The notes: generated from the sequence alone by a model not told the origin. Shown: positions 43,737-60,987, counted from the first letter of the stretch. The stretch: DNA of 61,707 nucleotides from Coriobacteriales bacterium (GCA_048173955.1 DBEYOB010000149.1:1-61707), one strand, 5' to 3'. Translations and numbers: made by a program.

Positions 43737-46700
43737 TTACGCGAAGTACGCCACGCCGCCCTCGAACAGCGGCTGGTAGGTGTTGCCCGGCACGTTCTTG
43801 TAGAGGCCCACGCCGCTGCGCTCGCTGTGGCCCATCTTACCGAAGATGCGGCCGTCGGGGCTCGTGATGCCCTCGATTGCCAGCACACTGCCGTTGGGGT
43901 TCACCGCCAGGTCCATGCCCGGCACGCCGTCGGCGTCCACGTACTGCGTGGCGATCTGGCCGTTGGCCTTGAGCTGCGCGACCGTCTCGGGGGAGGCGAC
44001 GAAGCGGCCCTCGCCGTGGCTGATGGCGACGGTGTGGACGTCGCCGACCTCGCACTTGCTCAGCCAGGGCGACAGCGTCGAGGCGACGCGGGTGTCCACG
44101 AGGCGGCTCTGGTGGCGGCCGATGGTGTTGAACGTCAGCGTGGGGCAGGTGTCGTCCATCGGGCGGATGTCGCCGAAGGGCACCAGGCCGAGCTTCACGA
44201 GCGCCTGGAAGCCGTTGCAGATGCCCAGCATCAGGCCGTCGCGGGCCTGCAGCAGGTCGCGCACCGCCTCGGTGACCGCCGGGGCGCGGAAGAACGCCGT
44301 GATGAACTTGGCGCTGCCGTCGGGCTCGTCGCCGCCCGAGAACCCGCCGGGCAGCATGACGATCTGGCTGTCGCGGATGGCGTCGACCAGGGCCTGGGCG
44401 CTCTCGGTCACCGCCTGGGGCGTCAGGTTGTTCACGACGAGCACGTGCGCCTCGGCCCCGGCGCGCTCGAAGGCGTGCGCGGTGTCGTACTCGCAGTTGG
44501 TGCCGGGGAACACGGGGATCACCACGCGCGGTTTGGCGACGCGCGGGCCGGTGTAGACGTGTGCCGCCTTCTCGCCGAAGCTCACGGTCTCGACCTTCTC
44601 GCCTGCGCCGCGATAGGGGAACACCCCCTCGATCGCGTGCTCCCACATCTCCTGCAGGTCGGCGAGGTCGACGGTCTCGCCGCCGGCCGAGAACGTGTAG
44701 TCGGCGCAGGTGCATCCGATGGGTACGACGCTCGCGTTGGCGGTGGAGTCGGGCAGCTCGGCGCCCTCCTCGAGCTCGACGACGAAGCTGCCGTAGGCCA
44801 GGTTGAACAGCGCGTTTTGCGGGAACACGGCGTTGGCCGCAAACCCGATGCGGTTGCCGACGCACATCTTGAAGAGCGCCTCGGCCAGCCCGCCGTAGCC
44901 CGGGGTTGACACGGCGAGCACCTTCTCGTCGGCGATGAGCTTCTCGACCAGGTCGAACGCCTCGAGCAGACCCTGCGCGTCGGGCACGATCGAACCCATG
45001 TCGGCGGTCGGCTCGACGACCACGACGCGGCTGCCGGGCTGCTTGAACTCGGGCGACACGATGCGGTCGACGCTGCCCACGGCGGTGGCGAAGCTCACCA
45101 GCGTGGGCGGCACGTCGAGCTGCTCGAAGCTGCCGCTCATCGAGTCCTTGCCGCCGATGGCTCCCACGCCGAGGTCGGCCTGGGCCATGAGCGCGCCGAG
45201 TACCGAGGCGACGGGCTTGCCCCAGCGCTTGGGTTCGTCGCGCAGCTTCTCGAAGTACTCCTGGAACGTGAGGTACGCCTTGCGGTGCTCGAAGCCGGCG
45301 GCCACGAGCTTGGATACGCTCTCGACCACGGCCAGGTATGCGCCCGTGAACTGGTTCTTCTCGGACAGGTAGGGGTTGAAGCCCCACGCCATGCCCGAGC
45401 ACGTCGAGGTCTCGCCGTCGACGGGCAGCTTGGCCACCATCGCCATGCTCGGCGTGAGCTGGGTGGCGCCGCCGAAGGGCATGAGCACCGTGGCCGCGCC
45501 GATCGTGGAGTCGAAGCGCTCGGAGAGGCCCTTGTTCGAGGCGACGTTGAGGTCGGTCACCACGGAGCGCATGAGCTGGGCGAGCGAGGTCCCGCGCCAG
45601 GCGGGCGCGTAGTCGTCGCCCTTCTCGACCAGGACGCGGGCGTGCTTGGGCGCGCCGTTGGAAGCGAGGAAGTCGCGGCTCACGTCGACGATGGTGGCGC
45701 CGTTCCACATCATGCGCACGCGCGGCTCGGCGGTCACCGTGGCGATGGGCGTGGCCTCGAGGTTCTCCTCGTGGGCATAGGCGATGAACTGGTCGACGTC
45801 CGCGGCCGCCAGCGCAACGGCCATGCGCTCCTGGCTCTCGGAGATGGCGAGCTCGGTGCCGTCGAGGCCGTCGTACTTCTTGGGCACGGCGTCGAGGTTC
45901 ACGAGCAGGCCGTCGGCGAGCTCGCCCACGGCCACGCTCACGCCGCCGGCGCCGAAGTCGTTGCAGCGCTTGATGAGGCGGCACGCGTCGCCGCGGCGGA
46001 ACAGACGCTGGATCTTGCGCTCCATGGGCGGGTTGCCCTTCTGCACCTCCGCGCCGTCCTTCTCGATGGACTCCACGTTGTGCGCCTTGGAGCTGCCCGT
46101 GGCGCCGCCGATGCCGTCGCGGCCCGTGCGGCCGCCGAGCAGTACCACGACGTCGCCGGGGGCGGGCGTCTCGCGCCTCACGTGGTCGGCCGGGGTGGCG
46201 CCCACCACGGCGCCGATCTCCATGCGCTTGGCGGCGTAGCCGGGGTGGTACAGCTCGCTCACCTGGCCGGTCGCCAGGCCGATCTGGTTGCCGTAGCTCG
46301 CGTAGCCGGCCGCGGCGGTCGTCACGAGCTTGCGCTGCGGCAGCTTGCCGGGCATCGTCTCGGAGACGGGCACGGTGGGGTCGGCCGCGCCGGTGACGCG
46401 CATGGCCTGGTAGACGTAGCTGCGCCCCGAGAGCGGGTCGCGGATGGCGCCGCCCAGGCAGGTGGCCGCGCCGCCGAAGGGCTCGATCTCGGTGGGGTGG
46501 TTGTGGGTCTCGTTCTTGAAGAGGTAGAGCCAGTCCTGCTCCTCGCCGTCGACATCGACCTTCACCTTGACGGTGCAGGCGTTGACCTCCTCGGACTCGT
46601 CGACGCCGGTGAGGACGCCCTTGGCCTTGAGCCAGCGCGCGCCCAGGGTGCCCATGTCCATGAGGCACACGGGCTTGGCGTCGCGACCGAGTTCGTGGCG

Positions 46701-47513
46701 CATCTGCAGGTAGCGGTCGTAGGCCTTGGCGACCTGCGGGTCGTCGATCTGGAAGCTGTCGAGCTGGGTGCCGAAGGTGGTGTGGCGGCAGTGGTCGCTC
46801 CAGTAGGTGTCGACGACCTTGATCTCGGTGATGGTGGGGTCGCGGTCCTCGGAGCGGAAGTACTCCTGGCAGAACCGGATGTCCGCCAGGTCCATGGCCA
46901 GGCCGCGCTCGGCGACGAACGCGGCGAGGCCCTCGTCATCGAGCTCGTTGAAGCCGGTCAGGACCTCGACGGGCTCGGGGGTGGGGACGTCGGCCGCGAG
47001 CGTGTCGCGCAGGGCGAGCGCCGTCTCGCGCGCCTCGACGGGGTTGATGACGTAGCGCTTGATGGCCGCGAGCGCCTCGGGGGCGAGGTCGCAGTCGAAC
47101 GCGTAGAGCTTCGCGCAGCGCACGGTGGGGCGCTCGCCCTGGGAGATGAGCTGGATGCACTCGGCGGCGGAGTCGGCGCGCTGGTCGAACTGGCCGGGCA
47201 GCGACTCCACGGCGAACAGGGTCGCGCCCGCACCCTGCGCGACGATGCCCTGGCCGCTTCCGGGCGCGCCGACCACGGCGCCCGCGACGGGCAGTTCGCG
47301 CGACGCGTTGTCGACCTGCGGCTCGGAGAACACCGTGGGCACGCACGCCTCGAAGAGCTCGTCCGAGATGCCCTCGACGTCGTAGACGTTGATGACGCGC
47401 AGCGTCGCCGCGGGCGGCAGCCCGTCGCCGACGACGGTGCGCAGCTCGGCGAGCAGCTGCTGCGCCTCGACGTCGAAGCCGGGTTTCTTCTCAACGTAGA
47501 TGCGTGAAACCAT
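43737..47513 (-). CDS. purL: Phosphoribosylformylglycinamidine (FGAM) synthase, large single-chain form
   Basis: 1258 aa. N-terminal MVSRIYVEKKPGFDVEAQ, AIR-synthase-like repeats, and a C-terminal glutamine amidotransferase with GICNGFQ and a later HGEG. Confidence 0.97.
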   Translation of the reverse strand: MVSRIYVEKKPGFDVEAQQLLAELRTVVGDGLPPAATLRVINVYDVEGISDELFEACVPTVFSEPQVDNASRELPVAGAVVGAPGSGQGIVAQGAGATLFAVESLPGQFDQRADSAAECIQLISQGERPTVRCAKLYAFDCDLAPEALAAIKRYVINPVEARETALALRDTLAADVPTPEPVEVLTGFNELDDEGLAAFVAERGLAMDLADIRFCQEYFRSEDRDPTITEIKVVDTYWSDHCRHTTFGTQLDSFQIDDPQVAKAYDRYLQMRHELGRDAKPVCLMDMGTLGARWLKAKGVLTGVDESEEVNACTVKVKVDVDGEEQDWLYLFKNETHNHPTEIEPFGGAATCLGGAIRDPLSGRSYVYQAMRVTGAADPTVPVSETMPGKLPQRKLVTTAAAGYASYGNQIGLATGQVSELYHPGYAAKRMEIGAVVGATPADHVRRETPAPGDVVVLLGGRTGRDGIGGATGSSKAHNVESIEKDGAEVQKGNPPMERKIQRLFRRGDACRLIKRCNDFGAGGVSVAVGELADGLLVNLDAVPKKYDGLDGTELAISESQERMAVALAAADVDQFIAYAHEENLEATPIATVTAEPRVRMMWNGATIVDVSRDFLASNGAPKHARVLVEKGDDYAPAWRGTSLAQLMRSVVTDLNVASNKGLSERFDSTIGAATVLMPFGGATQLTPSMAMVAKLPVDGETSTCSGMAWGFNPYLSEKNQFTGAYLAVVESVSKLVAAGFEHRKAYLTFQEYFEKLRDEPKRWGKPVASVLGALMAQADLGVGAIGGKDSMSGSFEQLDVPPTLVSFATAVGSVDRIVSPEFKQPGSRVVVVEPTADMGSIVPDAQGLLEAFDLVEKLIADEKVLAVSTPGYGGLAEALFKMCVGNRIGFAANAVFPQNALFNLAYGSFVVELEEGAELPDSTANASVVPIGCTCADYTFSAGGETVDLADLQEMWEHAIEGVFPYRGAGEKVETVSFGEKAAHVYTGPRVAKPRVVIPVFPGTNCEYDTAHAFERAGAEAHVLVVNNLTPQAVTESAQALVDAIRDSQIVMLPGGFSGGDEPDGSAKFITAFFRAPAVTEAVRDLLQARDGLMLGICNGFQALVKLGLVPFGDIRPMDDTCPTLTFNTIGRHQSRLVDTRVASTLSPWLSKCEVGDVHTVAISHGEGRFVASPETVAQLKANGQIATQYVDADGVPGMDLAVNPNGSVLAIEGITSPDGRIFGKMGHSERSGVGLYKNVPGNTYQPLFEGGVAYFA

Positions 47514-47842
47514 GATCCCTGCCTTCTTCTCCGGGTGCGCTGCCCGGGTGCGCGTGCGTCCCCGCCGCGCGTGCGGCGCGACCGTGTGGTCGTGCCAGGG
47601 CGGCGCGCGGTTCCGCGGGCGGATATGTGTCTACGACCATAATAAAGCCTGCGGCGCGCTGTCGGGGCGCGCGTTGGCGGCCGGTGCGGGGATTTCAGCG
47701 GGTTTCCAGGGGAGGGGGGTATCGACAACGAAGTACGTCCGAGTGGAGGGGCGTCCAAGGGACGCTGGGCGGGGCTGCGTGGTCTGTGATGTGCCTCCGG
47801 GCTGGGACACTTGGGCGAGCTGGACGTCCGCATGCAGGAGCT

Positions 47843-48332
47843 TCAGTTGAGATAACCGATGCTGGGTTCGTTGGACTGCGAGTCGAGGTGGCTGCGGCCC
47901 TCTATTCCGAGGTGAGTGAGAGCGTCTGCGAGTCCAGGTAGTCCGGTGAGGTTGTGCGGTGCTTGAAGAACCCTTCCCTTATGCCAGAGTGTCATGCGTG
48001 CCTCAAATTGAAAGGCATTGCCGTAGGGTCGTGTGGCGGCGTTGTTCTTTGCGTTGCGGAATACGGGGCGCTCATCCGAGTGTGTAGCTGTAGCTACCGA
48101 GCCACCTCTGCGCGTCATACGTTCTTCCGTCTGGGTTGCAGCGCAGGTGTTCGAGAGACATGAGGCGTCCAGAGAAGGTCTCGGTGGCGCAGTTGTTGTG
48201 GCGATGGCGCGCGAATGTCTCTGCTGCCGAACAGGTTGTGCTGAGCGCCCCGACCGCGTGGATATCCCTCCTTTGTGGAAATGGGCCTACAGATTCGGAG
48301 CGCGACTCTCCCTCTCTGACCCTCTGGCCCAT
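47843..48332 (-). pseudogene. Possible degraded transposase/integrase-core fragment at the left edge of the low-GC island (very tentative)
   Basis: Two overlapping short minus-strand ORFs in different frames. One contains HNNCATETFSGRLMSLE, which weakly resembles the DNAxxExFFxxLKxE segment of rve-type transposases. Spacing to the expected upstream motifs does not fit well. Confidence 0.2.
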
Positions 48333-48482
48333 GCGCTTCTTTGACTGAGGGCTACGTTAGAGGGGTGGAGGTGATTTGTCTTCGAGTGGCAGAGGCGAAA
48401 AACTGGATGTAAAGTGTTCTATTGCGTTCGAAAAACTTAATCGCAAAACTTGAGAAAGCATGTTGTCGATTGCAGAAGTAAT

Positions 48483-48488
48483 TATAAT
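48483..48488 (+). promoter_or_regulatory. TATAAT -10 box in the AT-rich leader of the island operon. GAGGAGGG RBS at 48509-48516.
   Basis: Read from the sequence. No good -35 at 17 nt spacing. Confidence 0.3.
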
Positions 48489-48524
48489 CACCTGTAAGAA
48501 AGCCTAGCGAGGAGGGATGCGCCC

Positions 48525-51500
48525 ATGGGTTTTATCTCGGCAATCCGAGCTTTACTCAAGCGTAGAGTCTGTGTCGTTTTTCACGGAGTCGATACCGTCT
48601 ATGACGGGTGCGAACATTCCCCTGGCTATGACATTACAGGGTTGCCGAATGGATATACGGCTGATGTCTCTAATCTGGTCAGTATTCGAGATGCGACACC
48701 TGCACCGGTCGTTGTCAACTCGGCCGTTTGCAGTATAAAAAATATGGATGGAAAAGACGTGACGCACCGTTTCGCCATTTCATTCACGTCGACAACAATC
48801 ATGATTAGGCCTGCAGAGCTGATTATCAAAACGCTCTCGATGGATAAAGTGTACGACGGCGTGCCTTTAAAGCCTCCCTCTGCTGAGGTTTGCGGGCTTA
48901 TCGGGGAAGACGAAATTGTTTTCGATACAGTCGCCTCCCCTGCGGATGTAGGGAATTATTCAAGTCTTGTTAGGATTGATTGGGAACGTTCATCAGCAAG
49001 GCAGTCTAACTACAAGATTCGATTCCTAAAGGGCTCATTAGAAATAAAAGCACGCCCTCTCACTGTGATTGCCGGCAGTGCCGAGAAGGAGTATGACGGA
49101 AAACCACTTAAATATGACGCAGTAAATATAGAAGGACTTATTTCAGGCGAAACGCTATCTGTTCGTTGCATTGGGGAAATCACCGATGAAGGCGAGACAA
49201 CAAATTGTGCATTGATACGCTGGGGCGACTCTACGGCGCGACCTCAAAACTATGAGACGTCTCTGATTGATGGGCAGTTGGTTGTAATCAAAAGAACGTT
49301 CGATGTCGTAGCCTCGCCAACGCGATGCGTGTTCGATGACGAATCGCATTTTCCAAGACTGGAAATTCCCGACGGGGCAACAGTTCTATACAAAAGATGT
49401 GAGCAATATCGGGAAGTTGGGAAATATAGCGTTGGGTATACCCTGAAAGCCCCTCATTACTTCGATATGGAGGGGGTCGCCTCCCTTGTTATTGAACCGG
49501 CGCCGCTTGTTGTGAGGATTGTGGGGGGGCGTTTCCGTTATGACGGTATGGAACATCGAGCATCAATTGAGGTGGAGGGTTTGCCTGCGGGATACACCGC
49601 AGAGGTGACATCGAATGCAGTAGTAAAAAATGTTTCCGATGGACAAGTTATTGCAAGATGTGACGCTATTTCTATAAAAGATTCTCGCGGTATCGATATG
49701 ACACATTGTTTTTATGTGGACACAGCGCTCGAGGCTATTATCGAAGTGGTACCGACAACTTTACTTGTTTGCACATATGATGCAAGAAAAGAATATGATG
49801 GCAAGGCAATCGAGACGGGGGGTAAAGTTACCGGTCTCAAAAAGGGTGAGGCCGTTACTTTTAAGACAACTGGTCGCCAAATTGAAGTGGGAACAAGCCA
49901 AAACACTTATGAGCTGCTATTTGATGGAACTGCTCGCAAAGAGAATTACATCATTCGTGAGGCCCTTGGCAACTTGACCGTCGAACCGGCTTCAATCCGT
50001 GCAGAAGGCCTGAAACATGGCAAAGAGCAGGATTTCCCAACTGCTATCCAGATGGGCGAGTCGCTGATTGACTTACGAGGGAAGACGAAGCCTCGTCGAA
50101 TGATTGACGAATGGCGAACAGTAAAAGCAAGAAAAGACCGGATGTCTCGCCCGTATCGGGCGCGTCCGGTTGCTGAGCGTCCCGATCTGGACGAGGCGGG
50201 GCTTGGGAAGGACTTCAAACCGAGTTCCAACATCGTGCCGGCCCCGCTTCCGAAAAGACCATTCGTTCAGAAGCTCAGAGAATTTGAGACAAGGGCTTGT
50301 GAAGAGATAAAGACGCTCAACGAGAAGGATAACGAGGGCCTTTTGTTCCAGTGCTTTGGTCCGTTTGCAACCGAGCTTTCCGAGCTGTGTGAGGCCTTTA
50401 AGGAGTTATTTGATTATTACCGCACTAACCAAACAGGCGCACTCGTTCAAATTCATTCTAATTTTCAATGTGCATTTCTTCTGTATGTTGCCAATCTTGC
50501 CAGGAGTTGCTATCGGGATGACACGCTATGGCAGCGTCTTTTTAAAGAAAACGGGATTCGCGACCAGGGGACCCGTGTTCAGTTCAAAAAGATGTTCATC
50601 TCATATCTCTACCGTCGCGGGATGCCTGTCTATGAAGCCAATGAACGACACACCTACATGCTTGATACGGCCTTGCTACATTGTGGCCTCACGGCCGATC
50701 TCTGGCAATCACTCTGGAAGGATTCTTTTCTGCCTTTGGCGCGGGCGGCACGAAATGGATTGGACGGCATGCATCCCGATTTAACAGTCGATGAGGTCGT
50801 AGGCTCCATCCTAGGGCACGACGTAAAATTTAAGCCCAACGAAAGGGCATTCAATGTTTTGGTGAAAGCACCTCATGACGCGCTTCTTTCCCTTTTTTCG
50901 GCTTCATGGGAGGTTGCTCTCCAGATAGAAAAGAGCCATATTGAGAATGGAGGCTCTCATCAAGACATTGTGTTTGTGACAAGCTTTGGTCTGTCTGCTA
51001 CTGCTATGGACGCTCTGAACGAGGTTGTTCAAAAGAAAGGATCGAGAAGGACATCGGCGAAGGAAGTCGTATATTTCGACCGTGTCGGCTTTATCCTGGA
51101 TATGGAAAAGGACTGTGCCTGCATAGATTGGAATGCGACCCATTTCGATTCGTCATTTCAAGGAAAGAAAGTCGACTTCTACATCAACGGAGAACGCAAA
51201 CATCGAGAAGAACTAGTCACTCGAGCTGACGGATGCGTGCTGCCAAAAGGTTCTATCGAAATCAAACCTCGCGCTAGCTACGACATCGAAGTCCGAATCA
51301 TTGAGACGGTCGGTGGCGAGGAATGGGAGTGCGGATCATTCGCGCAGAGCTTCCAAAACAACAAGCCGGGTTGCTATGAGTTCATCTACGACGCAGTGAA
51401 GCGGCAATATCGATATCGCGAGCCTAATGTGCGCCTGCGGAGAGGGAAGGAAATCGCCTATCTGGTTGATGAGGGGCTTCGTGTCGAAGGTCGCGGAGGC

Positions 51501-52898
51501 ATGGAGCTCCTTGAAGAAAAAGATGCTCGCGGCGACTGGGAAGGAATGTCCATCTTTGTTTTTCAGGTTAAGCCGGGAGCTTCGGGTGCGATCATTAAAT
51601 GTGATACGGACGAAGAGCAGAGCGCTTGGCATGAAGACTACCGTATTCGCATCGACAAGGATAAAATCATCGGACGTACATCGGACGGCCTAGATTTGTA
51701 CGGACATGCTTTGGGTAGTGGTCGGACGGATGTCGCTTTGCCGTCCATCCTTATCGAGGCGTTTGAGGGTGCAGAAGCGGCTAGTGACCTCGAGATAGTC
51801 TTTTCCCGGAATGGTGTTAGAACCGAGCTGGAGACGACATGTAGCCCCGTCGAGGGGGCTGATTCGGTTGCAATTCGCCTTACTTTCTTGGCCCGTACTC
51901 AAGGTTTTGGCATCTCAAGTTCTTGTGAGCTTGCGGTTTATCAGAAAACGAGTGGCAAAACGGTCATGCGGTATCGCTTCGCGGTTGTGCCGCTGCAGGG
52001 CTTTAGACTTGTCGATGGAAAAGTGCTAGCACGTGAATCTCAGGCTATCTACGAGTTTTATGCCACTGAGGATATCGAAGTATCTCACGGGGAAGACGAA
52101 CTCGAACATATTGCCGTGGGTGAGCAGTTTAATTTTCAAGAGCCGTTGGATAAAGAATATGCCACTTTACACATCGCAACGCAGTTGACATCAATCGATG
52201 TTTGCCTGGCGTTGGTTGGCATAGTGGTCAAGATTCCCGAGAAGCTTTTTAAGATTGAAGAGACGGGACAAATTTGTTTGGGGTCGTACTTCGGCGTGCC
52301 TTTATCCCTTGCTGATGGGGCGATTTCAATCTCGTCTTTCTGCCCGCGTCGCAATCGGAGTGTCATGGTAAGACTCGGTGATGAAAAACTCGTTTATAAA
52401 AATTTGGAACGTTCAAGCGACATCTCCGCTAACGTTTTCTTGGATTTGGAGAAGTTTAAACCTTCAAGTGAAAAGGGTGTCCCGTTTGTGCGCGATATCC
52501 CGTTAGAGCTAACGGTTGCCTATGGCCATGAATTAGTAGGCGACAGACTTATGCGCTCTTCGGCAAAACTGCCCATTTTGGGGTGCTATCAAGGTCTCGG
52601 TTTTGAGACATGTAAGATTTATGCGAAAGAATCGGGCTTTTATCTTGGTTTTGGAGGGCATGAGGGGCGCACGGTTCCGGTTTGCGATGTAGTCGTGACT
52701 ATCAAAGACACCGCTATGAGGAAAGTGCTGCTCACTCAAGAACTCGATGCAGGGTGCGGTGGGTTTGATTTGCCCGTGGAGATAGCGCGGATGTATGAAG
52801 GGCGAAAAAGACTTTCGGTAGAAGTTGCTCCAACTTCGTTGTTTGGAGATGTTGATGATAGAGGCAAGTTGGTTTACGAAATGAAGCGAGGCGCGTAG
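48525..52898 (+). CDS. Giant (1457 aa) hypothetical protein. N-terminal third has six MBG/YDG-type repeats, the remainder has no recognisable domain, and there is no signal peptide. Candidate DruH-like partner of the downstream helicase.
   Basis: Uninterrupted 4.4-kb ORF in AT-richer DNA with a strong RBS. About 80-aa repeats carry K/RxYDG..G[LE]..NYxI..GxLxI. The stop lies 1 nt before the next ATG. Confidence 0.85.
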   Translation: MGFISAIRALLKRRVCVVFHGVDTVYDGCEHSPGYDITGLPNGYTADVSNLVSIRDATPAPVVVNSAVCSIKNMDGKDVTHRFAISFTSTTIMIRPAELIIKTLSMDKVYDGVPLKPPSAEVCGLIGEDEIVFDTVASPADVGNYSSLVRIDWERSSARQSNYKIRFLKGSLEIKARPLTVIAGSAEKEYDGKPLKYDAVNIEGLISGETLSVRCIGEITDEGETTNCALIRWGDSTARPQNYETSLIDGQLVVIKRTFDVVASPTRCVFDDESHFPRLEIPDGATVLYKRCEQYREVGKYSVGYTLKAPHYFDMEGVASLVIEPAPLVVRIVGGRFRYDGMEHRASIEVEGLPAGYTAEVTSNAVVKNVSDGQVIARCDAISIKDSRGIDMTHCFYVDTALEAIIEVVPTTLLVCTYDARKEYDGKAIETGGKVTGLKKGEAVTFKTTGRQIEVGTSQNTYELLFDGTARKENYIIREALGNLTVEPASIRAEGLKHGKEQDFPTAIQMGESLIDLRGKTKPRRMIDEWRTVKARKDRMSRPYRARPVAERPDLDEAGLGKDFKPSSNIVPAPLPKRPFVQKLREFETRACEEIKTLNEKDNEGLLFQCFGPFATELSELCEAFKELFDYYRTNQTGALVQIHSNFQCAFLLYVANLARSCYRDDTLWQRLFKENGIRDQGTRVQFKKMFISYLYRRGMPVYEANERHTYMLDTALLHCGLTADLWQSLWKDSFLPLARAARNGLDGMHPDLTVDEVVGSILGHDVKFKPNERAFNVLVKAPHDALLSLFSASWEVALQIEKSHIENGGSHQDIVFVTSFGLSATAMDALNEVVQKKGSRRTSAKEVVYFDRVGFILDMEKDCACIDWNATHFDSSFQGKKVDFYINGERKHREELVTRADGCVLPKGSIEIKPRASYDIEVRIIETVGGEEWECGSFAQSFQNNKPGCYEFIYDAVKRQYRYREPNVRLRRGKEIAYLVDEGLRVEGRGGMELLEEKDARGDWEGMSIFVFQVKPGASGAIIKCDTDEEQSAWHEDYRIRIDKDKIIGRTSDGLDLYGHALGSGRTDVALPSILIEAFEGAEAASDLEIVFSRNGVRTELETTCSPVEGADSVAIRLTFLARTQGFGISSSCELAVYQKTSGKTVMRYRFAVVPLQGFRLVDGKVLARESQAIYEFYATEDIEVSHGEDELEHIAVGEQFNFQEPLDKEYATLHIATQLTSIDVCLALVGIVVKIPEKLFKIEETGQICLGSYFGVPLSLADGAISISSFCPRRNRSVMVRLGDEKLVYKNLERSSDISANVFLDLEKFKPSSEKGVPFVRDIPLELTVAYGHELVGDRLMRSSAKLPILGCYQGLGFETCKIYAKESGFYLGFGGHEGRTVPVCDVVVTIKDTAMRKVLLTQELDAGCGGFDLPVEIARMYEGRKRLSVEVAPTSLFGDVDDRGKLVYEMKRGA

Positions 52899-52899
52899 C

Positions 52900-55800
52900 A
52901 TGGCAAAAACACCAGAAGATAAGTTCGATCCAATCGAGGCGGCGCGGACAATCTCGGAATCGTATAGAAGTTACCTCGCTAGTACGATTCATTTTGCCGA
53001 CCAATCGTTTCAGGAGCAGCTTACTGAAATATTGGCTACTCCGGGAAATTTAGCAAAAGGACCCTTCTTGGAGGCTGCCCCGCCGTATAAGCAGGATGTT
53101 TCGATACGTGAGCTTGTTGACAGCGGCGAGTTGTGTCGCAGCATGCTGGAACTCGGCGGGGGAGAGCGCGATAAGTTTGACCCGGATCGCAAGCTATATG
53201 TTCATCAGGTCCGTGCAATCCGAAAAGCTTTAAGTGGGCATAACTATATTGTGGCGACGGGAACGGGTTCGGGTAAAACCGAATGCTTCTTGCTTCCCAT
53301 CATCAACGATATCCTGTGCGAATTTGAGGAAGCTGGTCCCAGTGCCGGCGTGCGTGCCATATTGATATATCCCATGAATGCGCTTGCCAATGATCAGCTC
53401 AAGCGCTTACGAGAGCTGCTCGCTGGCACTTCGGTGACATTTGGAAGATATACAGGCGATACGCAAGAAACCCAAGTTGAGGCCGAGAGTTCATGGCGTG
53501 AGGAGAACCCCGAACAGAAGCGATTGCCCAATGAGGTGATTTCTCGAGAGGCCATTCGCAAGGCACCTCCCAACATTCTGTTGACAAACTACTCCATGCT
53601 TGAATACCTGCTTTTGCGCCCGAAGGACGCCGACCTGTTCGGGCCGGTTTTTGGCAGAAACTGGCGACATCTCGCAATTGATGAGGCGCATGTCTACTCG
53701 GGTGCATTGGGCACTGAGGTGGGTTATCTAATCAGGCGGCTCAAGGCGCGCATCGAAGCTCAAACAGGTACTGCGCCCAATGTGAGATGCTACGCCACGT
53801 CGGCAACCATGGGATCAAAAGAAGAACTCCCCAAAATAGCGGAGTTCGCTGCCGGTTTATTTGGCGAAGCTTTCACGACGGAAGGCGATATCGATGTGAT
53901 TACCGGGTCTATTGATAGCCCGGAAAGAGATTTAAGGGAACCGTGGGGTTCGCTGCCTCTTTCCACGTGGTCACAGCTTGCGGAAGAGCTGCGAATTAAT
54001 GCCGACATCCAGGAATTGCTTTCAATACTTACAGGTTTGATTCCAAATTGCGAGACTGATGATTTGCTGCGTTCCGAAGACGCTCAGATTGGACTTGGGC
54101 ATGTGCTTTTAGGCGAACTGACCACGGCAACAGTTGTCCGTTCCGCTTCAAATGGTTTAACTGACTTGACCGCGATTGAACGAACTGATTTGATGGAAAT
54201 AACTGGCCTTGACGTGCGTATTCTTGTCGATATTGTTGAAGTCCTCGCATGGGCCCAGCGATCAAAAGGTGTTCCTATATTAAGCAGCAGATACCATCTT
54301 TTTTTACGAGGTCCTGAGGGCATATTTGCCAATCTCGCGACAAAGAAGCTCATTGCTGCCAAGACAATGGGAGAACCCTTTGATGACGAGGGGCATAACA
54401 TTCCCGTGTATGAGTTGGCGGTATGCAGACATTGTGGGCAAGCTTATGTGTTGGGGAAAGAGGAGGCGTCCGAAGACAGGAAGTGCAGCTTTCTCAGTCC
54501 GCGACATAGTGGCTTGGACAAGGGTGAGGATTTTATTCCTCGGAGCTATTACCGGCTCATGAAAGACGAAGACGATTCAGTCGAAGCTGAGAAAGTGTTC
54601 TGGCTCTGCAGCGTTTGTGGCTCTTTGCATAACGCCAGAGACGGCGGAGGGCATGTGTTCTCACATGAACCATGCGAGCGAATTCCAATTGCTTTTGGAA
54701 GTGCCACCGAAGAAGAGGCCACATGTCCCTACTGTGGTTATAAAAGTCGCCATGCCATTCAGCCCATGCGCGTTTCTCCCGAGGCGGTCGGCAGTGTCGT
54801 GTGTTACGATCTCGTTCGTCTCATTCCCCCGTTCGAAGTGGATGACGAAGAAACTGAAGAGGATTTATTTGAACTCGACGAAGACGATCGCCGCAAAGCC
54901 GGCAGTGTCATCTGCTTTTCCGACAACCGCCAAGATGCTGCCTATTTTGCTCCGGCATTGGAGCGAACCTACAGGCGAATCACTATTAGGCAGATTATTC
55001 GCGAAGCAGTTGACGATTTGTATAAAGAGCAGAGTAGACGCGTGTGCCCTTCGGCGGTCTGCAGTTGGATATCGCAAGAGGGGAGAAAGAGGTATCGATC
55101 ACTATTCGAAAAAAGGGACAGCTGGCAAGTTTCACAAGCGTGGGTTTGGAGCGAGCTGGTTGCGGACGACTATCGCAACAGTCTTGAGGGGCTGGGGGTT
55201 GTTCGGGTCGAACTTACCGATTTCTCCGAACTTCTTGGAGAAAAGGTTGTTTCTAGAGCGGTAGACAAGATGCTAGCCGGACTTGGTGAGGAATTGGCTT
55301 GGGTCACAGCGGACGACTACCGAGTCTTTGTCCGGTACTGCTTTGATTCACTTCGAAGCCAAGGGGCAATTGAAGCTCCTCAGGGAGTTGCTTATAATCT
55401 CTTCTATACAAGGGTGCGTCCGAAGCTTGTAGTTCTCGGCGATGGTGACATTTCTAAAAAGGTTATCTCATTCATCGGAGGAGAAAAGACTATCGAAAAT
55501 CGACGCAGCGACTTCATTCGTCGTTATGCCAGAGAGGTGCACGGTGCCGATGTGACACGTGGCGAGTGCGCAAGCTTGCTCAGATCGATATTTGATTTTA
55601 TGAGCAAGCTTCTAAGCGCTGCTTCGAAGCGGAGCGGCATGGATTTTGTTCAAAATGAGGGAGGAAAGGGGTTCTGGTTCAATCAGAACCTTTGGACTAT
55701 GGTCCCTCACAGGGATTCCGATGCTGTTTGGATTTGCGACACCTGTGGCTGCGAGAGGCATACCAGTACCAATGGGGTATGCCCGACCTACCGCTGCGAA

Positions 55801-57723
55801 GGCCACATGGTAGAGACGAACTACGCTGAGGTGAAACATAAAGACGAACATTATAAAGATGTCTATGTTGACGAGCCTTTGCCGATTTGCGTTGAAGAAC
55901 ATACCGCCCAATTGTCTCGGGAGCAGGCACGCAATGTTCAGCGTGATTTTATTAAAGGAAACGTCAATGTTTTGTCGTGTACTACGACGTTCGAGCTGGG
56001 TGTTGACGTCGGCGATTTGCGGGCAGTCTTCATGCGAAACATACCTCCTCGAGCTGCCAATTACACACAGCGAGCCGGTCGAGTTGGTAGGCGTGCGGGA
56101 AAACCGGGATTTGCCGTGACTTTTGCCCGTCTGCGGCCTCACGATATAGCGCTTTACAAAGACCCCGAGCGGGTCATTCGCGGTTCTTCTCCTGTTCCCT
56201 GCTGCTATCTTGACAACGATGCTATCGCCCTGCGTCACGTGTTTGCCATTGCTCTTTCGGAGTACTTTAGATTCATGGACAAAGAAGGCGAAAACCAGTC
56301 TCGTCACTATCACAAATTCATGAATCTGTCTGAGGCCACGCCCGAGGGGCTCTCTCTATTGAAAGACTATCTTGACACTAACCCCGAGGGGATAAAGATC
56401 CAGATTGAATCGATGCTGCCTAAAAATAAGACGCGAATTGTTCGTCAGGCGCTTGAAGTTGACTCATGGGGATGGGTTGATAGGCTGGTCGGTCCGGAGG
56501 GTCGTTTGGCCCGCACACACAGACTGAAGCACGACGATTACGAGCGTATATATTTTGCATTTAATGAATGCCAGGAGGCGGAGGAGCGCGGTCGAGCCCG
56601 TGGTCTACTCGGAATGCTAGAGCGAATGGAAGCAGAACTGACCATTTCCGTCTTAGCAGGAAACGGAATTTTGCCAAAGTACGGTTTTCCAACTGATTTG
56701 GTTGAACTTAAAATCGACAATCAGGGGAGTTTTTCCTTGAAAAGTGAGCTGCAGCTCCAAAGGGGACTGCGCCAAGCAATTAGAGAGTATGCTCCTGGCA
56801 ATGAGATTATTGCGAACAAACGAGTATGGAAGTCTGTCGGTATTCGCAAACCGAGGAATCACAAGCTTGAGACGCGCTATTACGGAAGGTGCGAGTGTGG
56901 GGCGTTCGTGTGGCCAGTTGAGGACTATTCAAAAAAGGCGGTTTGCCGCGTATGTGGCAAGGACGTCACCCTATCTGACGTGATGATCGTTCCTTCGGAA
57001 GGCTTTTTTGCGAAGGAGGAGACGAATAAAGATGCCGGAGAGCAGCGACCGCGTAGTAGGGGAGGGATAAGGATTGAGTTTTGCCAAAACTGGCCCGATG
57101 AGGCAAAAAATGAAAAGCTTACATTTCCCGGAGGCACGATCGAGGTTCGCTTTGCTGGGAATGCCCAGCTCTGCGCATTAAACACAGCGAACGGCAAAGG
57201 TTTTCAGTTTTGCTCCTATTGCGGCGCTGCCGCACCCAGCGGCGAGCAGTTGGAACATGAGAGATACTGCAACGAGCGGCGAGGTCACCATTACGATGCG
57301 TTGGGCACATCGTTCGTGAGCGACGTACTTGAATTCACGCTGTGTCTTTCCCACAGACCGCGAGAACCTTTCTCAGAAGAGGATTGGGAGTCTCTTGTTT
57401 GGGCAATCTTTGCGGCGGCTGTGGATATCTTCGAACTCCCTGAGATGGAATTGGGAGGTACGTTTTATCCGAATCCGAGCGGGTCTCAATCGGTAATGCT
57501 CTATGACGATGTGCCCGGCGGTGCTGGCCATGCTCTTCAGATTGCTCGCCATGTAAGAGGGGTGATTATGCGGGCGCATAAAATCGTATCTGAATGTACC
57601 TGTGGTGAGGATACATGCTGCTATGGATGTCTATGCAACTACTACAATCAGGCGAGTCAGTCTCATTTGTCAAGAGGGGGTGCGCTTCGGATTCTTAATG
57701 CCCTGTTTGGATTAGATTACTAA
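52900..57723 (+). CDS. Giant (1607 aa) SF2 DEAH-box helicase fused to a C-terminal DUF1998/MrfA-type zinc-binding domain. DruE-like.
   Basis: Motif I ATGTGSGKT (aa 119-127), motif II DEAH (aa 261-264, nt 53680-53691), SAT (aa 301-303), motif VI QRAGRVGRR (aa 1057-1065). DUF1998-type signatures LPKYGFPTD (aa 1258-1266), LYDDVPGGAGHA (aa 1534-1545) and CTCGEDTCCYGCLCNYYNQ (aa 1566-1584). Confidence 0.9.
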   Translation: MAKTPEDKFDPIEAARTISESYRSYLASTIHFADQSFQEQLTEILATPGNLAKGPFLEAAPPYKQDVSIRELVDSGELCRSMLELGGGERDKFDPDRKLYVHQVRAIRKALSGHNYIVATGTGSGKTECFLLPIINDILCEFEEAGPSAGVRAILIYPMNALANDQLKRLRELLAGTSVTFGRYTGDTQETQVEAESSWREENPEQKRLPNEVISREAIRKAPPNILLTNYSMLEYLLLRPKDADLFGPVFGRNWRHLAIDEAHVYSGALGTEVGYLIRRLKARIEAQTGTAPNVRCYATSATMGSKEELPKIAEFAAGLFGEAFTTEGDIDVITGSIDSPERDLREPWGSLPLSTWSQLAEELRINADIQELLSILTGLIPNCETDDLLRSEDAQIGLGHVLLGELTTATVVRSASNGLTDLTAIERTDLMEITGLDVRILVDIVEVLAWAQRSKGVPILSSRYHLFLRGPEGIFANLATKKLIAAKTMGEPFDDEGHNIPVYELAVCRHCGQAYVLGKEEASEDRKCSFLSPRHSGLDKGEDFIPRSYYRLMKDEDDSVEAEKVFWLCSVCGSLHNARDGGGHVFSHEPCERIPIAFGSATEEEATCPYCGYKSRHAIQPMRVSPEAVGSVVCYDLVRLIPPFEVDDEETEEDLFELDEDDRRKAGSVICFSDNRQDAAYFAPALERTYRRITIRQIIREAVDDLYKEQSRRVCPSAVCSWISQEGRKRYRSLFEKRDSWQVSQAWVWSELVADDYRNSLEGLGVVRVELTDFSELLGEKVVSRAVDKMLAGLGEELAWVTADDYRVFVRYCFDSLRSQGAIEAPQGVAYNLFYTRVRPKLVVLGDGDISKKVISFIGGEKTIENRRSDFIRRYAREVHGADVTRGECASLLRSIFDFMSKLLSAASKRSGMDFVQNEGGKGFWFNQNLWTMVPHRDSDAVWICDTCGCERHTSTNGVCPTYRCEGHMVETNYAEVKHKDEHYKDVYVDEPLPICVEEHTAQLSREQARNVQRDFIKGNVNVLSCTTTFELGVDVGDLRAVFMRNIPPRAANYTQRAGRVGRRAGKPGFAVTFARLRPHDIALYKDPERVIRGSSPVPCCYLDNDAIALRHVFAIALSEYFRFMDKEGENQSRHYHKFMNLSEATPEGLSLLKDYLDTNPEGIKIQIESMLPKNKTRIVRQALEVDSWGWVDRLVGPEGRLARTHRLKHDDYERIYFAFNECQEAEERGRARGLLGMLERMEAELTISVLAGNGILPKYGFPTDLVELKIDNQGSFSLKSELQLQRGLRQAIREYAPGNEIIANKRVWKSVGIRKPRNHKLETRYYGRCECGAFVWPVEDYSKKAVCRVCGKDVTLSDVMIVPSEGFFAKEETNKDAGEQRPRSRGGIRIEFCQNWPDEAKNEKLTFPGGTIEVRFAGNAQLCALNTANGKGFQFCSYCGAAAPSGEQLEHERYCNERRGHHYDALGTSFVSDVLEFTLCLSHRPREPFSEEDWESLVWAIFAAAVDIFELPEMELGGTFYPNPSGSQSVMLYDDVPGGAGHALQIARHVRGVIMRAHKIVSECTCGEDTCCYGCLCNYYNQASQSHLSRGGALRILNALFGLDY

Positions 57724-57774
57724 AATATATGTACCGGTATCCCCCCCACGGCGCCTGCATCGCCCGTAACAAAT

Positions 57775-57816
57775 GGCCCCGGGCCGGACGGCGTTCCGCC
57801 GTCTCGGTCCGGGGCC
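57775..57816 (-). terminator. Imperfect GC hairpin followed, on the minus strand, by ATTTGTTA. Candidate terminator of the DUF4012 gene at the right edge of the island.
   Basis: GGCCCCGGGCCGGACGGCG..GCCGTCTCGGTCCGGGGCC forms 8+3+5 bp of pairing with one mismatch and one bulge. Confidence 0.35.
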
Positions 57817-57846
57817 GCTCTCCACTATCTATGCCCCGTCGGCTTC

Positions 57847-59721
57847 CTACCACCGCTGCGCGAGCGGGGTCTGGTGCACCTCCAGCTCCTGGATCGCCTC
57901 CGCGGAGACGGTGACCTGGTAGGTGATCGTGACGCTCTCCTGCGCATAGAGGTTCACGTCGACGCGCCACACGTCGTGGCCGTAGAGCGTCGCCTCGCCC
58001 GCGCCCGCGCCGCTGCTCGCGGCGACGCCCGAGATGGAGCCGCCCGCCGGGGCGACGAGGAACGCGGTGACGAACAGGTCGTCGTCGCTGCGCTTCGCGG
58101 GGCTGTAGCCGATGATGTACGCGGGGGCCACGGCGGCCTCCTCCTGCGTGAAGGTGTTCGTCAGCGTGGTCGACACGCTGTAGGTCACGGTGCCGTCGGC
58201 GTTCTGCACCGACCCGGTGACCTGGGTGCCCATGTTCAGGTACCAGGCCATCTTTGCCCAGGTGTTGTCGTTCACGTAGACGCCGAGTTGCGGCTTGGCG
58301 GGGTCGTTCGGCAGGGCGCCCGTGACGTTCATGCCGCTCATGGCGGACTGGACGGCCTCGTTTTTCGACCAGAACAGGACACGCCCCTCGTCGGCGTCGC
58401 GGCCGACCACGTCGAGCAGCTGCCCCAGGTCGAGGGCGCCCAGGTCGCTCATGACGCGGTCGGCGACCAGGCCGGCCACCTCGGCGAAGAAGGGGTCCTG
58501 GTATTCGGGGTCGAGCCTCCAGTAGATGTCGCTCGAGAGGATCTGCGCCGCGTTGGTGCCGTCGACGACGGTGCCGTCGCTCGTGGTGACGCCGCCCACC
58601 AGGGTCAGGATGTCCTGCACGAACACCGGGTCCATGGCGATGACGCCGTCGACCGCCTGGCCCATGTAGGCCTGCCACGCCTCGGCCATCAGGCTCGCGG
58701 CGCGCGGGAAGTCGGGCGTGCAGTTGAGGTTGCCGGGGCTGATGCCCATGTCCGCCCCGAACAGGGCGATTTCCTCGTCGGTGAGCTGGAAGGTGACGTC
58801 GCGCTTGCCCGAGATGGTGGTGAAGCCGCCCAGGGTGGCCTGGCCGTTCTCGACGGTGACGGTGCCCCACGCGCCGGGGAACCCGCCCGTGGCGCGGACC
58901 TCGGAGTTGCACTGCGCGATGATGAGGTAGGTGCGCGGCCCGTTGCATCCGATGACCTCAGGGATCTGTGCGACGAGGGGGCCGTAGGCGTCGAGCAGCT
59001 CGCTTGCCTGGGCGAGCGGCTCCCTGAGCTGGTCGACCACGTCGTTGAGCTGCGAGATCTTGAAGGTGCCGAGCGACTCCAGGCGCGCCGAGGCGTCGTC
59101 GACCGCCGGCTCGACCTGGGTGACGAGGCTGCAGTACTGCGTGAGCGCGGCGGTGTTCACGCTCGAGCCCGACAGCAGCGAGTCGAGCGGGTAGGAGGCC
59201 AGGGTCGCCGCTGCCGGCTCGAGCGCGCCGCCGATCAGGGTGTCGGCGATCGAGAGCAGCTCGCGGGCGCCCTCGACGTCGCCGCCGTAGCCGGGGACGC
59301 GGGCGGCCAGGTCCCAGATGGGGCCGTCGAGCTCCTCCCGCAGGGAGTCGACGCCCTGCCGCAGGTCGGACGTGGCCTGCTGGAGCGCCGCGCCGTCGCC
59401 GTTCTCGACGGCCGCCTGCAGGTCGTCGACGGTCGAGGAGAGCGAGCGCGCCCCGTCCAGGGCGCGCTGCACCGAGCCGTATGCCATGGTGCCGACCACG
59501 GCGACCGCCGCGATGAGCGCGACGACGATGCCGAGGACGATGAACAGGGGCGCCTTGCTGCGCTTGCGTCCGGACGTGCCGCCGGAGCCGCGGCCGCCCG
59601 AGGGGCGGCCGGCCCTGCCGGTCGGCGCGCTGAAGCGGTTGCCCTGGCGCGCGTAGGGGTTGGCGTCGTACGGACTGCCCGCGTAGGGGCTGCTGTCGTA
59701 GGGGCTGGAGCTGTATGGCAT
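57847..59721 (-). CDS. DUF4012-type membrane-anchored envelope protein
   Basis: Ser/Pro/Tyr-rich cytoplasmic N-terminus, a single TM helix (APLFIVLGIVVALIAAVAVVGTMAY), then a large extracytoplasmic domain with NSEVRATGGFPGAWGTVTVENG, typical of DUF4012. ATG 59721 with GGGAGGG upstream. Confidence 0.8.
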   Translation of the reverse strand: MPYSSSPYDSSPYAGSPYDANPYARQGNRFSAPTGRAGRPSGGRGSGGTSGRKRSKAPLFIVLGIVVALIAAVAVVGTMAYGSVQRALDGARSLSSTVDDLQAAVENGDGAALQQATSDLRQGVDSLREELDGPIWDLAARVPGYGGDVEGARELLSIADTLIGGALEPAAATLASYPLDSLLSGSSVNTAALTQYCSLVTQVEPAVDDASARLESLGTFKISQLNDVVDQLREPLAQASELLDAYGPLVAQIPEVIGCNGPRTYLIIAQCNSEVRATGGFPGAWGTVTVENGQATLGGFTTISGKRDVTFQLTDEEIALFGADMGISPGNLNCTPDFPRAASLMAEAWQAYMGQAVDGVIAMDPVFVQDILTLVGGVTTSDGTVVDGTNAAQILSSDIYWRLDPEYQDPFFAEVAGLVADRVMSDLGALDLGQLLDVVGRDADEGRVLFWSKNEAVQSAMSGMNVTGALPNDPAKPQLGVYVNDNTWAKMAWYLNMGTQVTGSVQNADGTVTYSVSTTLTNTFTQEEAAVAPAYIIGYSPAKRSDDDLFVTAFLVAPAGGSISGVAASSGAGAGEATLYGHDVWRVDVNLYAQESVTITYQVTVSAEAIQELEVHQTPLAQRW

Positions 59722-60146
59722 GTGCCCTCCCGGGTACGTTCGAGCATGGTCGTGTGGCCGTGCATGGTGGTCGTGCATCCGCCCTGCGCGGTGTCTGGCG
59801 CGCGGGATGGTCCTGCGCCGCGCCGCTGCTCGCGGTGCGCTCCGACGTAGGCGAGGGGGCATTGTACCCGTTGGCGATGGGCATGGTGTGTGGAAGGCCG
59901 AGGGCGGGGCGATGCGGCGCGATCTGCCGGCGTGCCGGAATCGCCGGCGTGCCGCTTACGTGCGCCGTGCGCGGAGGGCGCCTCTGCGAACCGCTGACTG
60001 CCGCGTGCCGCGAATCGCCGACCGCCGCGTGCCACCCGCGTGATGTCCGTGTGACGCCTGGCGCGCGCCGGGCAGCGGGGCTATAATCTGCCCGCTTCGC
60101 GCGGTCGCGCGCGAGTTCCGACGTCTACGGAGGAAGAGGGAGCCCG

Positions 60147-60614
60147 ATGCTGTTCTCGAACGATCCCGACCAGCTTGCCTATGCGTGCGGCAAGGCCGCC
60201 GTGTTCATGCACGAGCACGACATGGCCGAGCTCCCCAACGGGCGCTACGACCTGTGCGGCGGCGACTACGTGAACATCATGGAGTACACCACGAAGGAGC
60301 GCGCCGAGGCGTGCTACGAGTCGCACGTCGAGTACGTCGACATCCAGATGGTGCTGCGCGGCGCCGAGTATCTCGAGGTCGTCCCGGTCGAGGGGCTTAC
60401 GGTGACGTCCCCCTATTCCGAGGAGGGCGACTGCGCCCTCTACGACGGCGCGCCTGCGGGCGAGCGCTTCCTCATGCTGCCCGGACGCTTCTGCATGGTC
60501 GGTCCGAACGACGCGCACATGCCCAGCGTGGCGACCGAGGACGGTCCGGCGCCCGCCAAGAAGGCCGTCTTCAAGATTCGGGTCGACCACCTGCCCTCGA
60601 CGAAGGTGGTGTAG
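60147..60614 (+). CDS. YhcH/YjgK/YiaL (EbgC-like, DUF386) family protein
   Basis: 155 aa. NGRYDLCGGDYVNIMEYTTKE..ESHVEYVDIQMVLRGAEYLEV..FCMVGPNDAHMP matches the family pattern. Confidence 0.8.
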   Translation: MLFSNDPDQLAYACGKAAVFMHEHDMAELPNGRYDLCGGDYVNIMEYTTKERAEACYESHVEYVDIQMVLRGAEYLEVVPVEGLTVTSPYSEEGDCALYDGAPAGERFLMLPGRFCMVGPNDAHMPSVATEDGPAPAKKAVFKIRVDHLPSTKVV

Positions 60615-60676
60615 GCTGCGAGACGGCCGGGAGTTGTCGTCCGAGGGGCCGGGACTGGCGCCCGGGAAGCCCCGAT

Positions 60677-60851
60677 GCCTGAATAATCACGCGTTGCGAA
60701 CGATTTTCGGACGTACGTAAGGGCGGGTTGGGGATAGGATGGAGGACTAGCTTTTCGTATTAGAAAGCTAATCTTCTGTTTGGGCTGTACTTGGTCCCTC
60801 GGGCCGCCGCGCCGCTCTTCCCAATCGTTCGCAACCCGCATTTCTTCAGAC
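60677..60851. repeat. MITE/REP-like palindromic element related to 36499..36684 (arms contain GTTGCGAACGAT / ATCGTTCGCAAC)
   Basis: Left arm GCCTGAATAATCACGCGTTGCGAACGATTT. Right arm CAATCGTTCGCAACCCGCATTTCTTCAGAC. AT-rich core with a small internal hairpin TAGCTTTTC..GAAAGCTA. Confidence 0.6.
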
Positions 60852-60987
60852 AACGGGTTCTCGGCTGTGCGTCGCAACGAGCCCCCGCTCGCCCGGCGCG
60901 CCCACGCCCTGCCCGGTGCCCGCGGCCCTCCCGGTGCCCGGTGCCCGCGGCCCTTTCCCCTTGCGCCCCATCTTCGCTCGCCCGGCC

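Follow-up and report, generated by a model that had tools for sequence, protein, structure and literature searches.

A strain-variable two-gene island in a Coriobacteriales bacterium, predicted to be a Druantia III-like module whose DruE partner is missed by current DruH models

What kind of system is encoded by two giant genes that share a block of low G+C content between GC-rich flanks, and does it belong to a known class of phage defence? The stretch of 61,707 nucleotides (nt) analysed here, hereafter the window, comes from a Coriobacteriales bacterium (GCA_048173955.1, DBEYOB010000149.1:1-61707), and the block in question lies between purL and a gene for a DUF4012 protein. A first reading, made from the sequence alone (the original prediction), had proposed a candidate Druantia type III-like anti-phage system composed of DruH and DruE, or an undescribed relative of it. 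Our comparisons indicate that window 47693-57832 is probably a horizontally acquired, strain-variable two-gene module, predicted to act against phages, of the Druantia III kind and nearest to its nuclease-less subtype III-B. Druantia III and subtype III-B are known already and being actively studied, and the lack of a nuclease is no novelty by itself. What is new is a lineage of partner proteins, about 100 clusters in size, that current defence models miss, with interchangeable heads and with a small subgroup that carries an MBG/YDG domain array in what is predicted to be a cytoplasmic protein.

The foreign segment and its compact DruE

The segment is foreign, and its presence or absence is a polymorphism among strains. 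An exact-protein look-up with the 624-amino-acid (aa) DUF4012 protein retrieved three contigs of the same species (L091, L092 and L093) that encode an identical DUF4012 protein and have purL about 0.5 kb away. They align to window positions 60467-57833 and 47692-46472 at 99.2-99.6% identity, and positions 47693-57832 are missing from all three. These island-free contigs correct the borders of the block, first placed at 47840 and 57745, to 47693 and 57832, and they delimit an island-specific segment of 10,140 nt with a GC content of 50.5%, standing in place of a 331-nt spacer of 67% GC. In 500-nt intervals, GC lies at 0.45-0.53 over 48500-57500 and at 0.64-0.74 in the flanks, and GC at third codon positions (GC3) is 0.49 in gene 1 (open reading frame 1, ORF1) and 0.51 in gene 2 (ORF2), against 0.97 in both purL and the DUF4012 gene. 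The abrupt shift in composition and codon usage described earlier is thus borne out, and the GC3 contrast, together with the empty site in the same species, shows the horizontal acquisition that had been proposed.

Exact-protein look-ups also placed the island at the identical position in several metagenome samples, with both genes intact in at least four of them. The island genes are 99.71% identical between samples and the DUF4012-side flank (57833-61396) is 97.95-98.07% identical with 10-13 gap openings (window against L086 and L088), a difference that would fit an island having spread recently among these bacteria; it appears to be younger, or to have been exchanged more recently, than its right flank. 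Changes within the population are mostly synonymous (8 synonymous against 3 non-synonymous in ORF1, and 10 against 5 in ORF2), so that both genes are under constraint. No target-site duplication, integrase or transposase was found, and tRNA and Rfam scans of the window gave no match, so that nothing points to a tRNA-linked integration. A metagenome scan with DUF4012 had returned no empty site, which was obtained later by the exact-protein look-up. The host, a gut bacterium, belongs to the Coriobacteriia. The purL relatives present in GTDB genomes are uninformative on the empty site: the closest, at 76% identity, belong to uncultured Coriobacteriales, Paratractidigestivibacter and Olsenella, and none of 80 loci had a DUF4012 or LysR gene within 10 kb.

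The segment holds two co-directional giant genes on the plus strand, with lengths and spacing exactly as first described: gene 1 (48525..52898; 1457 aa) and gene 2 (52900..57723; 1607 aa) are 1 nt apart and, given this gap, probably translationally coupled. The identity of gene 2 follows from its matches to PADLOC hidden Markov models (HMMs; here and below, per-protein matches), to Pfam and to the PDB. Its PADLOC matches to DruE1 (4.9e-175, 583 bits) and DruE3 (8.1e-160) are far above those to DrmA (9.6e-19, 65 bits), DpdJ and BrxH, and a precomputed YjiV_N match exists for it. Its best sequence matches in the PDB are two DruE-sized helicases, 9tu7 (a 2108-aa DEAD/DEAH helicase, 4.8e-76) and 9wae (1.8e-38), and YprA/MrfA (6znp) is matched at 2.9e-24 and 88 bits. 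Gene 2 thus falls with DruE, as predicted, and not with the DrmA or YprA/MrfA helicases that had been named as alternatives.

All parts expected of a superfamily 2 (SF2) DEAH helicase, and the Cys-rich C-terminal module that had been noticed, are present in the translation. The DEAD domain recognised by Pfam (aa 102-306, nt 53203-53817) contains the Walker A motif GSGKT (aa 123-127, nt 53266-53280), the DEAH motif (aa 261-264, nt 53680-53691) and the SAT motif (aa 301-303), all three read directly in the sequence, and Pfam further assigns aa 995-1065 (nt 55882-56094) to Helicase_C and aa 1507-1578 (nt 57418-57633) to MZB, a domain rich in Cys. Between the two RecA-like domains lie about 690 aa with several CxxC pairs, in agreement with the BrxA-like, Zn-beta-barrel and MarR-like insertions described as typical of the ARMADA-Druantia lineage (PMC12458937). 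Only 34 aa follow the last CxxC of the MZB domain, compared with 418-422 aa of tandem PLD in III-A DruE proteins, and no nuclease domain was recognised after MZB. Judged by its sequence, gene 2 is therefore a nuclease-less SF2 DEAH helicase of the DruE family, within the YprA family, with an MZB/DUF1998 module and intact ATPase motifs.

Subtype III-B is distinguished by a compact DruE without PLD and by a single partner gene (10.64898/2026.05.13.724758; PMC12458937), as in MSMEG_1253/1254 of M. smegmatis (PMC13316683), and in the compact DruE branch the commonest state is 'no nuclease domain at all' (PMC12458937). In M. smegmatis, a DruE of 1667 aa and a DruH of 1132 aa block phage DNA circularisation and replication, with a minor tail protein as the trigger. 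The island resembles III-B in its two genes, the large partner first, in their tight juxtaposition, in its actinobacterial host and in the make-up of DruE, which measures about 1600-1670 aa, has DEAD, Helicase_C and DUF1998/MZB and lacks PLD, a likeness drawn from the published description. It differs in its partner protein, which all DruH/YjiT models miss, which has only its helical domain remotely similar to DruH, and which carries a 500-aa MBG/YDG array. With the III-A system of E. coli (DruH/YjiT and DruE/YjiV, locus L103) the island shares the gene order, the YprA core, the long insert that separates the RecA-like domains, and the MZB module; in III-A DruH, a helical regulatory region at the N-terminus precedes immunoglobulin (Ig)-like domains. 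III-A DruE, however, measures about 2100 aa with some 420 aa of tandem PLD after MZB, and ORF2 is only 24-25% identical to it; III-A DruH, unlike gene 1, matches ten PADLOC DruH HMMs and YjiT_fam.

A YprA-family helicase and a DUF1998/MZB module are also common to ARMADA, DISARM and MrfAB, and each of these differs from the island. In DISARM the two parts are split between DrmA and DrmB, whereas ORF2 has them fused, and the two-gene segment contains neither a DrmC PLD gene nor a methyltransferase gene. The island equally lacks the BrxHII-like helicase, PglX or other methyltransferase, and PLD or Vsr nuclease of ARMADA, and ORF2 has no extra C-terminal domain; here the helicase clade was compared only through the 26% identity of ORF2 to E. 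coli ArmC. MrfA/MrfB (YprA/YprB) consists of a helicase of about 750 aa with a 3'-5' exonuclease as its partner or fused to it, whereas ORF2 has 1607 aa and no exonuclease gene is found in the island. The statement of the original prediction that the block has no methyltransferase or nuclease gene holds for the segment with its corrected borders, where there are two genes and no recognisable nuclease.

Gene 1, its family and its genomic company

Gene 1 begins with a short basic amphipathic helix, MGFISAIRALLKRR, after which come six all-beta MBG/YDG domains in tandem; helix and array together occupy aa 1-500 (48525..50024, plus strand). Pfam recognises YDG (1.3e-10) and MBG_2 (1.4e-5) and no other family, and YDG-type motifs lie at aa 26, 110, 190, 270, 339 and 424. 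A confident AlphaFold2 (AF2) model of aa 1-500, with a predicted local distance difference test (pLDDT) score of 88.4, has a helix at aa 3-10 and then six all-beta domains. The pattern MGF(I/F)S.(I/L)(R/K).LF.R(R/K) is conserved ahead of the first YDG domain in gene 1 (aa 1-15, 48525-48570) and in the MBG-bearing relatives P0003, P0121, P0132, P0133, P0136 and P0137. It is too short and too charged for a signal peptide, and the helix could serve in membrane targeting or docking.

Both YDG and MBG have been catalogued as stalk domains of fibrillar adhesins (PMC9210967), and a word-based search of 5.8 billion proteins returned giant surface-type proteins, more than 100 of them, whose match to gene 1 is confined to its N-terminal third, with 25-32% identity over the six domains. 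Tandem MBG/YDG domains in variable number are shared with fibrillar adhesins and 'periscope' proteins (PMC9210967; 10.1101/2020.12.24.424174). Unlike these, gene 1 has no signal peptide (as read in MGFISAIRALLKRR, which contains no N-terminal hydrophobic segment), no LPXTG-type anchor at its C-terminus (the translation ends in ...VYEMKRGA) and no adhesive tip domain, and its array forms one protein with a DruH-like module and is linked to a helicase of the cytoplasm.

After a linker, the array is followed by an alpha-helical domain (aa ~579-837, 50259..51035, plus strand; AF2) and by a beta-sandwich, Ig-like array that reaches the C-terminus (aa ~847-1457, 51063..52895, plus strand; AF2). In the model of the C-terminal 915 aa (pLDDT 74.8), helices occupy fragment residues 37-295, about 260 aa, and residues 305-915 are rich in strands. 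The most conserved motif of the family as judged by invariant alignment columns, LLHxGL...W...W..P, lies inside the helical domain. Foldseek searches retrieved only generic arrays, of tandem domains for the N-terminal model against the PDB and of Ig, FN3 and cadherin domains (template-modelling score, TM, about 0.1) for the C-terminal model against the PDB of April 2026 and BFVD; TM values across the N- and C-terminal searches were 0.06-0.27. DruH structures are apparently absent from that PDB release, and this outcome therefore speaks neither for nor against homology to DruH.

Full-length relatives of gene 1 (P0002, P0003 and P0121; two from the word-based search and one more from a search with the C-terminal 957 aa) share 34-37% identity with it, and each is encoded directly upstream of a DruE. 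The family as a whole is defined by the C-terminal 915 aa: an exhaustive profile search of 1.84 billion representatives yielded 101 clusters at 50% identity. About ten of these are long forms with extended N-termini, and those among them that Pfam recognises carry MBG/YDG repeats, in numbers that vary between relatives. Most members measure about 1000 aa and lack the MBG array, and a few distant ones measure about 1200 aa. In the ~1000-aa relatives (P0139-P0149; for example L094 8001-8200), a profile search against the PDB found that the N-terminal ~65 aa are helix-hairpin-helix (HhH)-like, resembling the N-terminal domain of RAD51C and RpoA's C-terminal domain (E 0.001). This head sits where other relatives have the MBG array, and its role may be to bind DNA or to dock to proteins. 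When gene 1 or its family was searched against the PDB by sequence and by profile, this HhH-like match was the sole signal, and DruH was not matched.

The link between the partner family and the helicase is constant in the contexts examined. In all six (the window; L001, L002 and L003, with MBG forms; L094, with a 1000-aa form; and L097, with a distant 1200-aa form) a family member lies directly upstream of DruE, and the gene pairs of the relatives overlap or are separated by gaps of at most 12 nt. The identity of the helicases to ORF2 co-varies with the partner family: it is 57-59% for those beside MBG or 1000-aa partners, 43% for L097, 28-31% for the DruE of a Clostridium butyricum plasmid described below and, as given above, lowest for III-A DruE. 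The surroundings of the relatives also fit the defence role that had been predicted for the module. McrBC adjoins the pair in L003, and NERD helicases stand near the pairs in L094 and L097, the latter also with PDC-S41 (6.5e-131). In L002 (1-4163) two genes stand directly upstream of the pair: first the C-terminal part of another YprA-type helicase with an MZB domain, which is ArmC-like, and then a GajB-like UvrD helicase; by its sequence, this two-gene neighbour resembles ArmC/ArmD of ARMADA II, and the arrangement echoes Druantia III's co-localisation with ARMADA II reported in E. coli.

The DruE of Clostridium butyricum plasmid pNPD4_2 (NZ_CP013238.1; L101 3789-11674) is likewise compact, with 1559 aa and a PADLOC DruE match of 6.4e-177, and it overlaps the gene upstream, whose hypothetical product of 1069 aa is matched by no DruH HMM and not by the family of gene 1. 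This product may represent a third partner family for nuclease-less DruE proteins. A match on a Streptomyces plasmid (H17) was also considered as a Druantia pair and was rejected, being a split helicase beside a fragment of a type IIG restriction-modification system.

The relation of gene 1 to DruH and the competing readings

Is gene 1, then, a DruH? We compared profiles with hhalign, using an alignment of 33 sequences of the gene 1 family and one of 23 DruH sequences, with reversed sequences as the control. The helical N-domains, in DruH the YjiT_N region, align with a probability of 84.6% (E 6.8e-6, score 45.4), against a score of 12.7 and E 0.47 for the reversed control; the beta-rich parts align weakly (score 33.6, E 0.007; control score 17.9, E 0.41). 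The aligned stretch corresponds to DruH aa 37-143 and includes F69, R78/79, W88, L129 and T131, which mutagenesis has assigned to an N-terminal regulatory surface needed for activation (PMC13192584). Within it the most conserved motifs of the two families are paired, FCLYAAEW.RR...W with FLxYVAxxAR...LW and TLACEGGLP with TALLHGGLS. Cryo-electron microscopy has described DruH as a globular domain at the N-terminus, then six Ig-like subdomains, then a C-terminal domain (10.64898/2026.05.12.722862), a succession with which the helical domain and subsequent beta-sandwich array of the AF2 model of gene 1 agree. Based on the profile comparison and this compatible predicted layout, gene 1 is probably a very distant homologue of DruH.

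Several results weigh against placing the module with Druantia III. Gene 1 finds no counterpart among the PADLOC DruH HMMs, even when each half is searched at E<=10, and eight of its relatives match none of these models. The NCBIfam model YjiT_fam (NF038336) matches neither gene 1 nor P0139 or P0213; no precomputed Pfam YjiT_N or YjiT_2nd (PF27201, PF27205) exists for gene 1, and P0139 and P0213 have no Pfam entry on record. Over full length, hhalign gives a single match with E 8.9e-4 and a probability of 23%, full-length comparisons together reach just 23-30%, and the detectable similarity to DruH spans about 100 columns. As for the helicase, the identity of ORF2 to E. coli ARMADA ArmC about equals that to III-A DruE, and neither gene contains a recognisable nuclease. 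The models themselves work, as the E. coli DruH used as control (pQnrS1_005237, L103) matches ten PADLOC DruH3 HMMs and YjiT_fam at 3e-294. This control was chosen after no DruH was found in the immigration-control region of E. coli ATCC 8739. Its 44 retrieved homologues measure 693-1234 aa and contain only YjiT_N/YjiT_2nd, and an MBG/YDG array occurs in none of them. As far as sequence models define it, gene 1 is outside the current DruH family, in line with the earlier remark that its architecture was unlike DruH and might represent a new variant; its similarity is limited to the remote one of the N-domain.

These results could be taken to mean that the island is a separate DruE-based two-gene system, a new type whose partner is unrelated to DruH and was recruited independently. 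The failure of every DruH model on gene 1 and its relatives, with the control passing, would agree with this, as would the low full-length probability and the equal distance of ORF2 from III-A DruE and ArmC; moreover, the 1069-aa protein of C. butyricum indicates that partners beside DruE do get replaced. We nevertheless regard an independent origin as unlikely, since the N-domains align with the probability and E value given above and the reversed control is clean, the best-conserved motifs of the two families are paired at the same position in the protein, and gene order, the length of the module (915 against ~1100 aa) and the succession of a helical and then a beta domain are the same in both. 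At the other extreme, the island would be an ordinary Druantia III already covered by existing definitions. Gene 2 is clearly a DruE, its pairing with one partner gene corresponds to type III, and compact nuclease-less DruE proteins have been described as III-B, yet PADLOC DruH3, NF038336 and PF27201/PF27205 all miss gene 1, the MBG/YDG array is foreign to the retrieved DruH homologues, and tools that need a DruH match would not call the locus, which makes this reading very improbable.

It is less probable still that gene 1 is a surface fibrillar adhesin that happens to stand beside a solitary helicase, or that the pair forms a DNA-repair module like MrfA/MrfB. The adhesin-stalk domains, the many giant surface-type proteins matching the N-terminal third of gene 1 and the YprA/MrfA core of gene 2 could suggest as much. 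Against it stand the missing signal peptide and LPXTG-type anchor, the 1-nt gap here and overlaps in relatives with adjacency in every context, and the fact that most members of the gene 1 family have no MBG array; gene 2, for its part, is twice the size of MrfA, scores far higher as a DruE than as a YprA, and is accompanied by no exonuclease gene. We thus favour a Druantia III-like module, nearest to III-B, whose partner is a highly diverged relative of DruH.

If the Druantia III-like module works as the DruHE systems of E. coli and M. smegmatis do, a mechanism can be proposed by analogy. DruE is reported to bind exposed single-stranded DNA (ssDNA) or 3' overhangs and to unwind 3'->5', and DruH to bind ssDNA and/or late phage proteins and to act upstream. 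On infection, the DruE of the island would load on exposed single-stranded or 3'-tailed phage DNA and unwind it 3'->5' using ATP; the gene 1 protein would act upstream as a sensor or regulator, through its DruH-like helical surface and Ig-like array, and the two proteins together would block circularisation and replication of phage DNA. The MBG/YDG array could, speculatively, be an added recognition or spacer module. This leads us to ask whether stalk domains of adhesins have been recruited into a cytoplasmic immune sensor, either as a module that recognises the phage, for instance its tail or baseplate (tail or baseplate proteins are reported triggers of DruHE), or as a ruler or tether at the site of DNA entry. 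We consider such a recruitment a tentative idea and rather doubtful. Were it true, MBG array and HhH head would be interchangeable, and the family of about 100 clusters would constitute a second DruH-like sensor lineage with swappable heads, invisible to present tools.

A tool that requires a DruH match would see an orphan DruE at this locus, and the partner family stands beside a DruE in each context examined, so that counts of systems resembling Druantia III may be too low, at any rate for gut Actinomycetota and metagenomes. That the only region alignable with canonical DruH is the N-terminal surface controlling activation suggests that a core of DruH function has been conserved, which lends itself to comparison in structure-function studies, and the swappable heads, MBG/YDG array or HhH-like domain, offer a handle on how infection is sensed. 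A module without a nuclease domain also provides a compact case for studying how nuclease-less Druantia stops phage.

Leader, hairpin and neighbouring genes

The left part of the island ahead of gene 1 is a non-coding stretch and leader of about 830 nt (47693..48524, plus strand), along which GC drops from 0.64 to 0.49. The TATAAT and the ribosome-binding site reported earlier in this leader can be read at 48483-48488 and, as GAGGAGGG, at 48509-48516, 8 nt ahead of the ATG of gene 1. Scanning for the consensus gave no full sigma-70 promoter, since a -35 element at the proper distance is missing and TATAAT stands alone. Gene callers have annotated two short ORFs, 91 and 86 aa long and overlapping, on the minus strand of the leader (47843-48118 and 48072-48332) in public assemblies; they have no Pfam match and no tblastn match outside their own locus among the fetched loci, and are probably spurious.

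At the other end, GC-rich sequence returns about 15-20 nt past the TAA of gene 2, in agreement with the roughly 20 nt first noted. The right 110 nt of the island contain a strong GC-rich hairpin of 20 bp (57775..57816), inside the island-specific segment and between the convergent DruE (plus strand) and DUF4012 (minus strand) genes. Its minimum free energy is -43.7 kcal/mol (z -6.9), and none of 200 shuffled sequences folds equally well. It has no T-run and was therefore missed by the terminator scan; we think it likely that it acts as a bidirectional transcription stop. In the island-free allele, the corresponding position of the 331-nt spacer is taken by another hairpin.

Both flanking genes named in the original prediction are confirmed by their domains and lie on the minus strand: purL (43737..47513) encodes GATase_5, AIRS_C and FGAR-AT linker domains, and the gene at 57847..59862 has a DUF4012 match. 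Beyond the latter (window ~59900-61707 and further on, as seen in L084 and L089) come a DUF386 gene, genes for GerE/LuxR-type regulators and two genes for FAD_binding_2 flavoprotein reductases, and the same scaffold carries, past the end of the window, a PIN_3 gene and a Uma2 gene.

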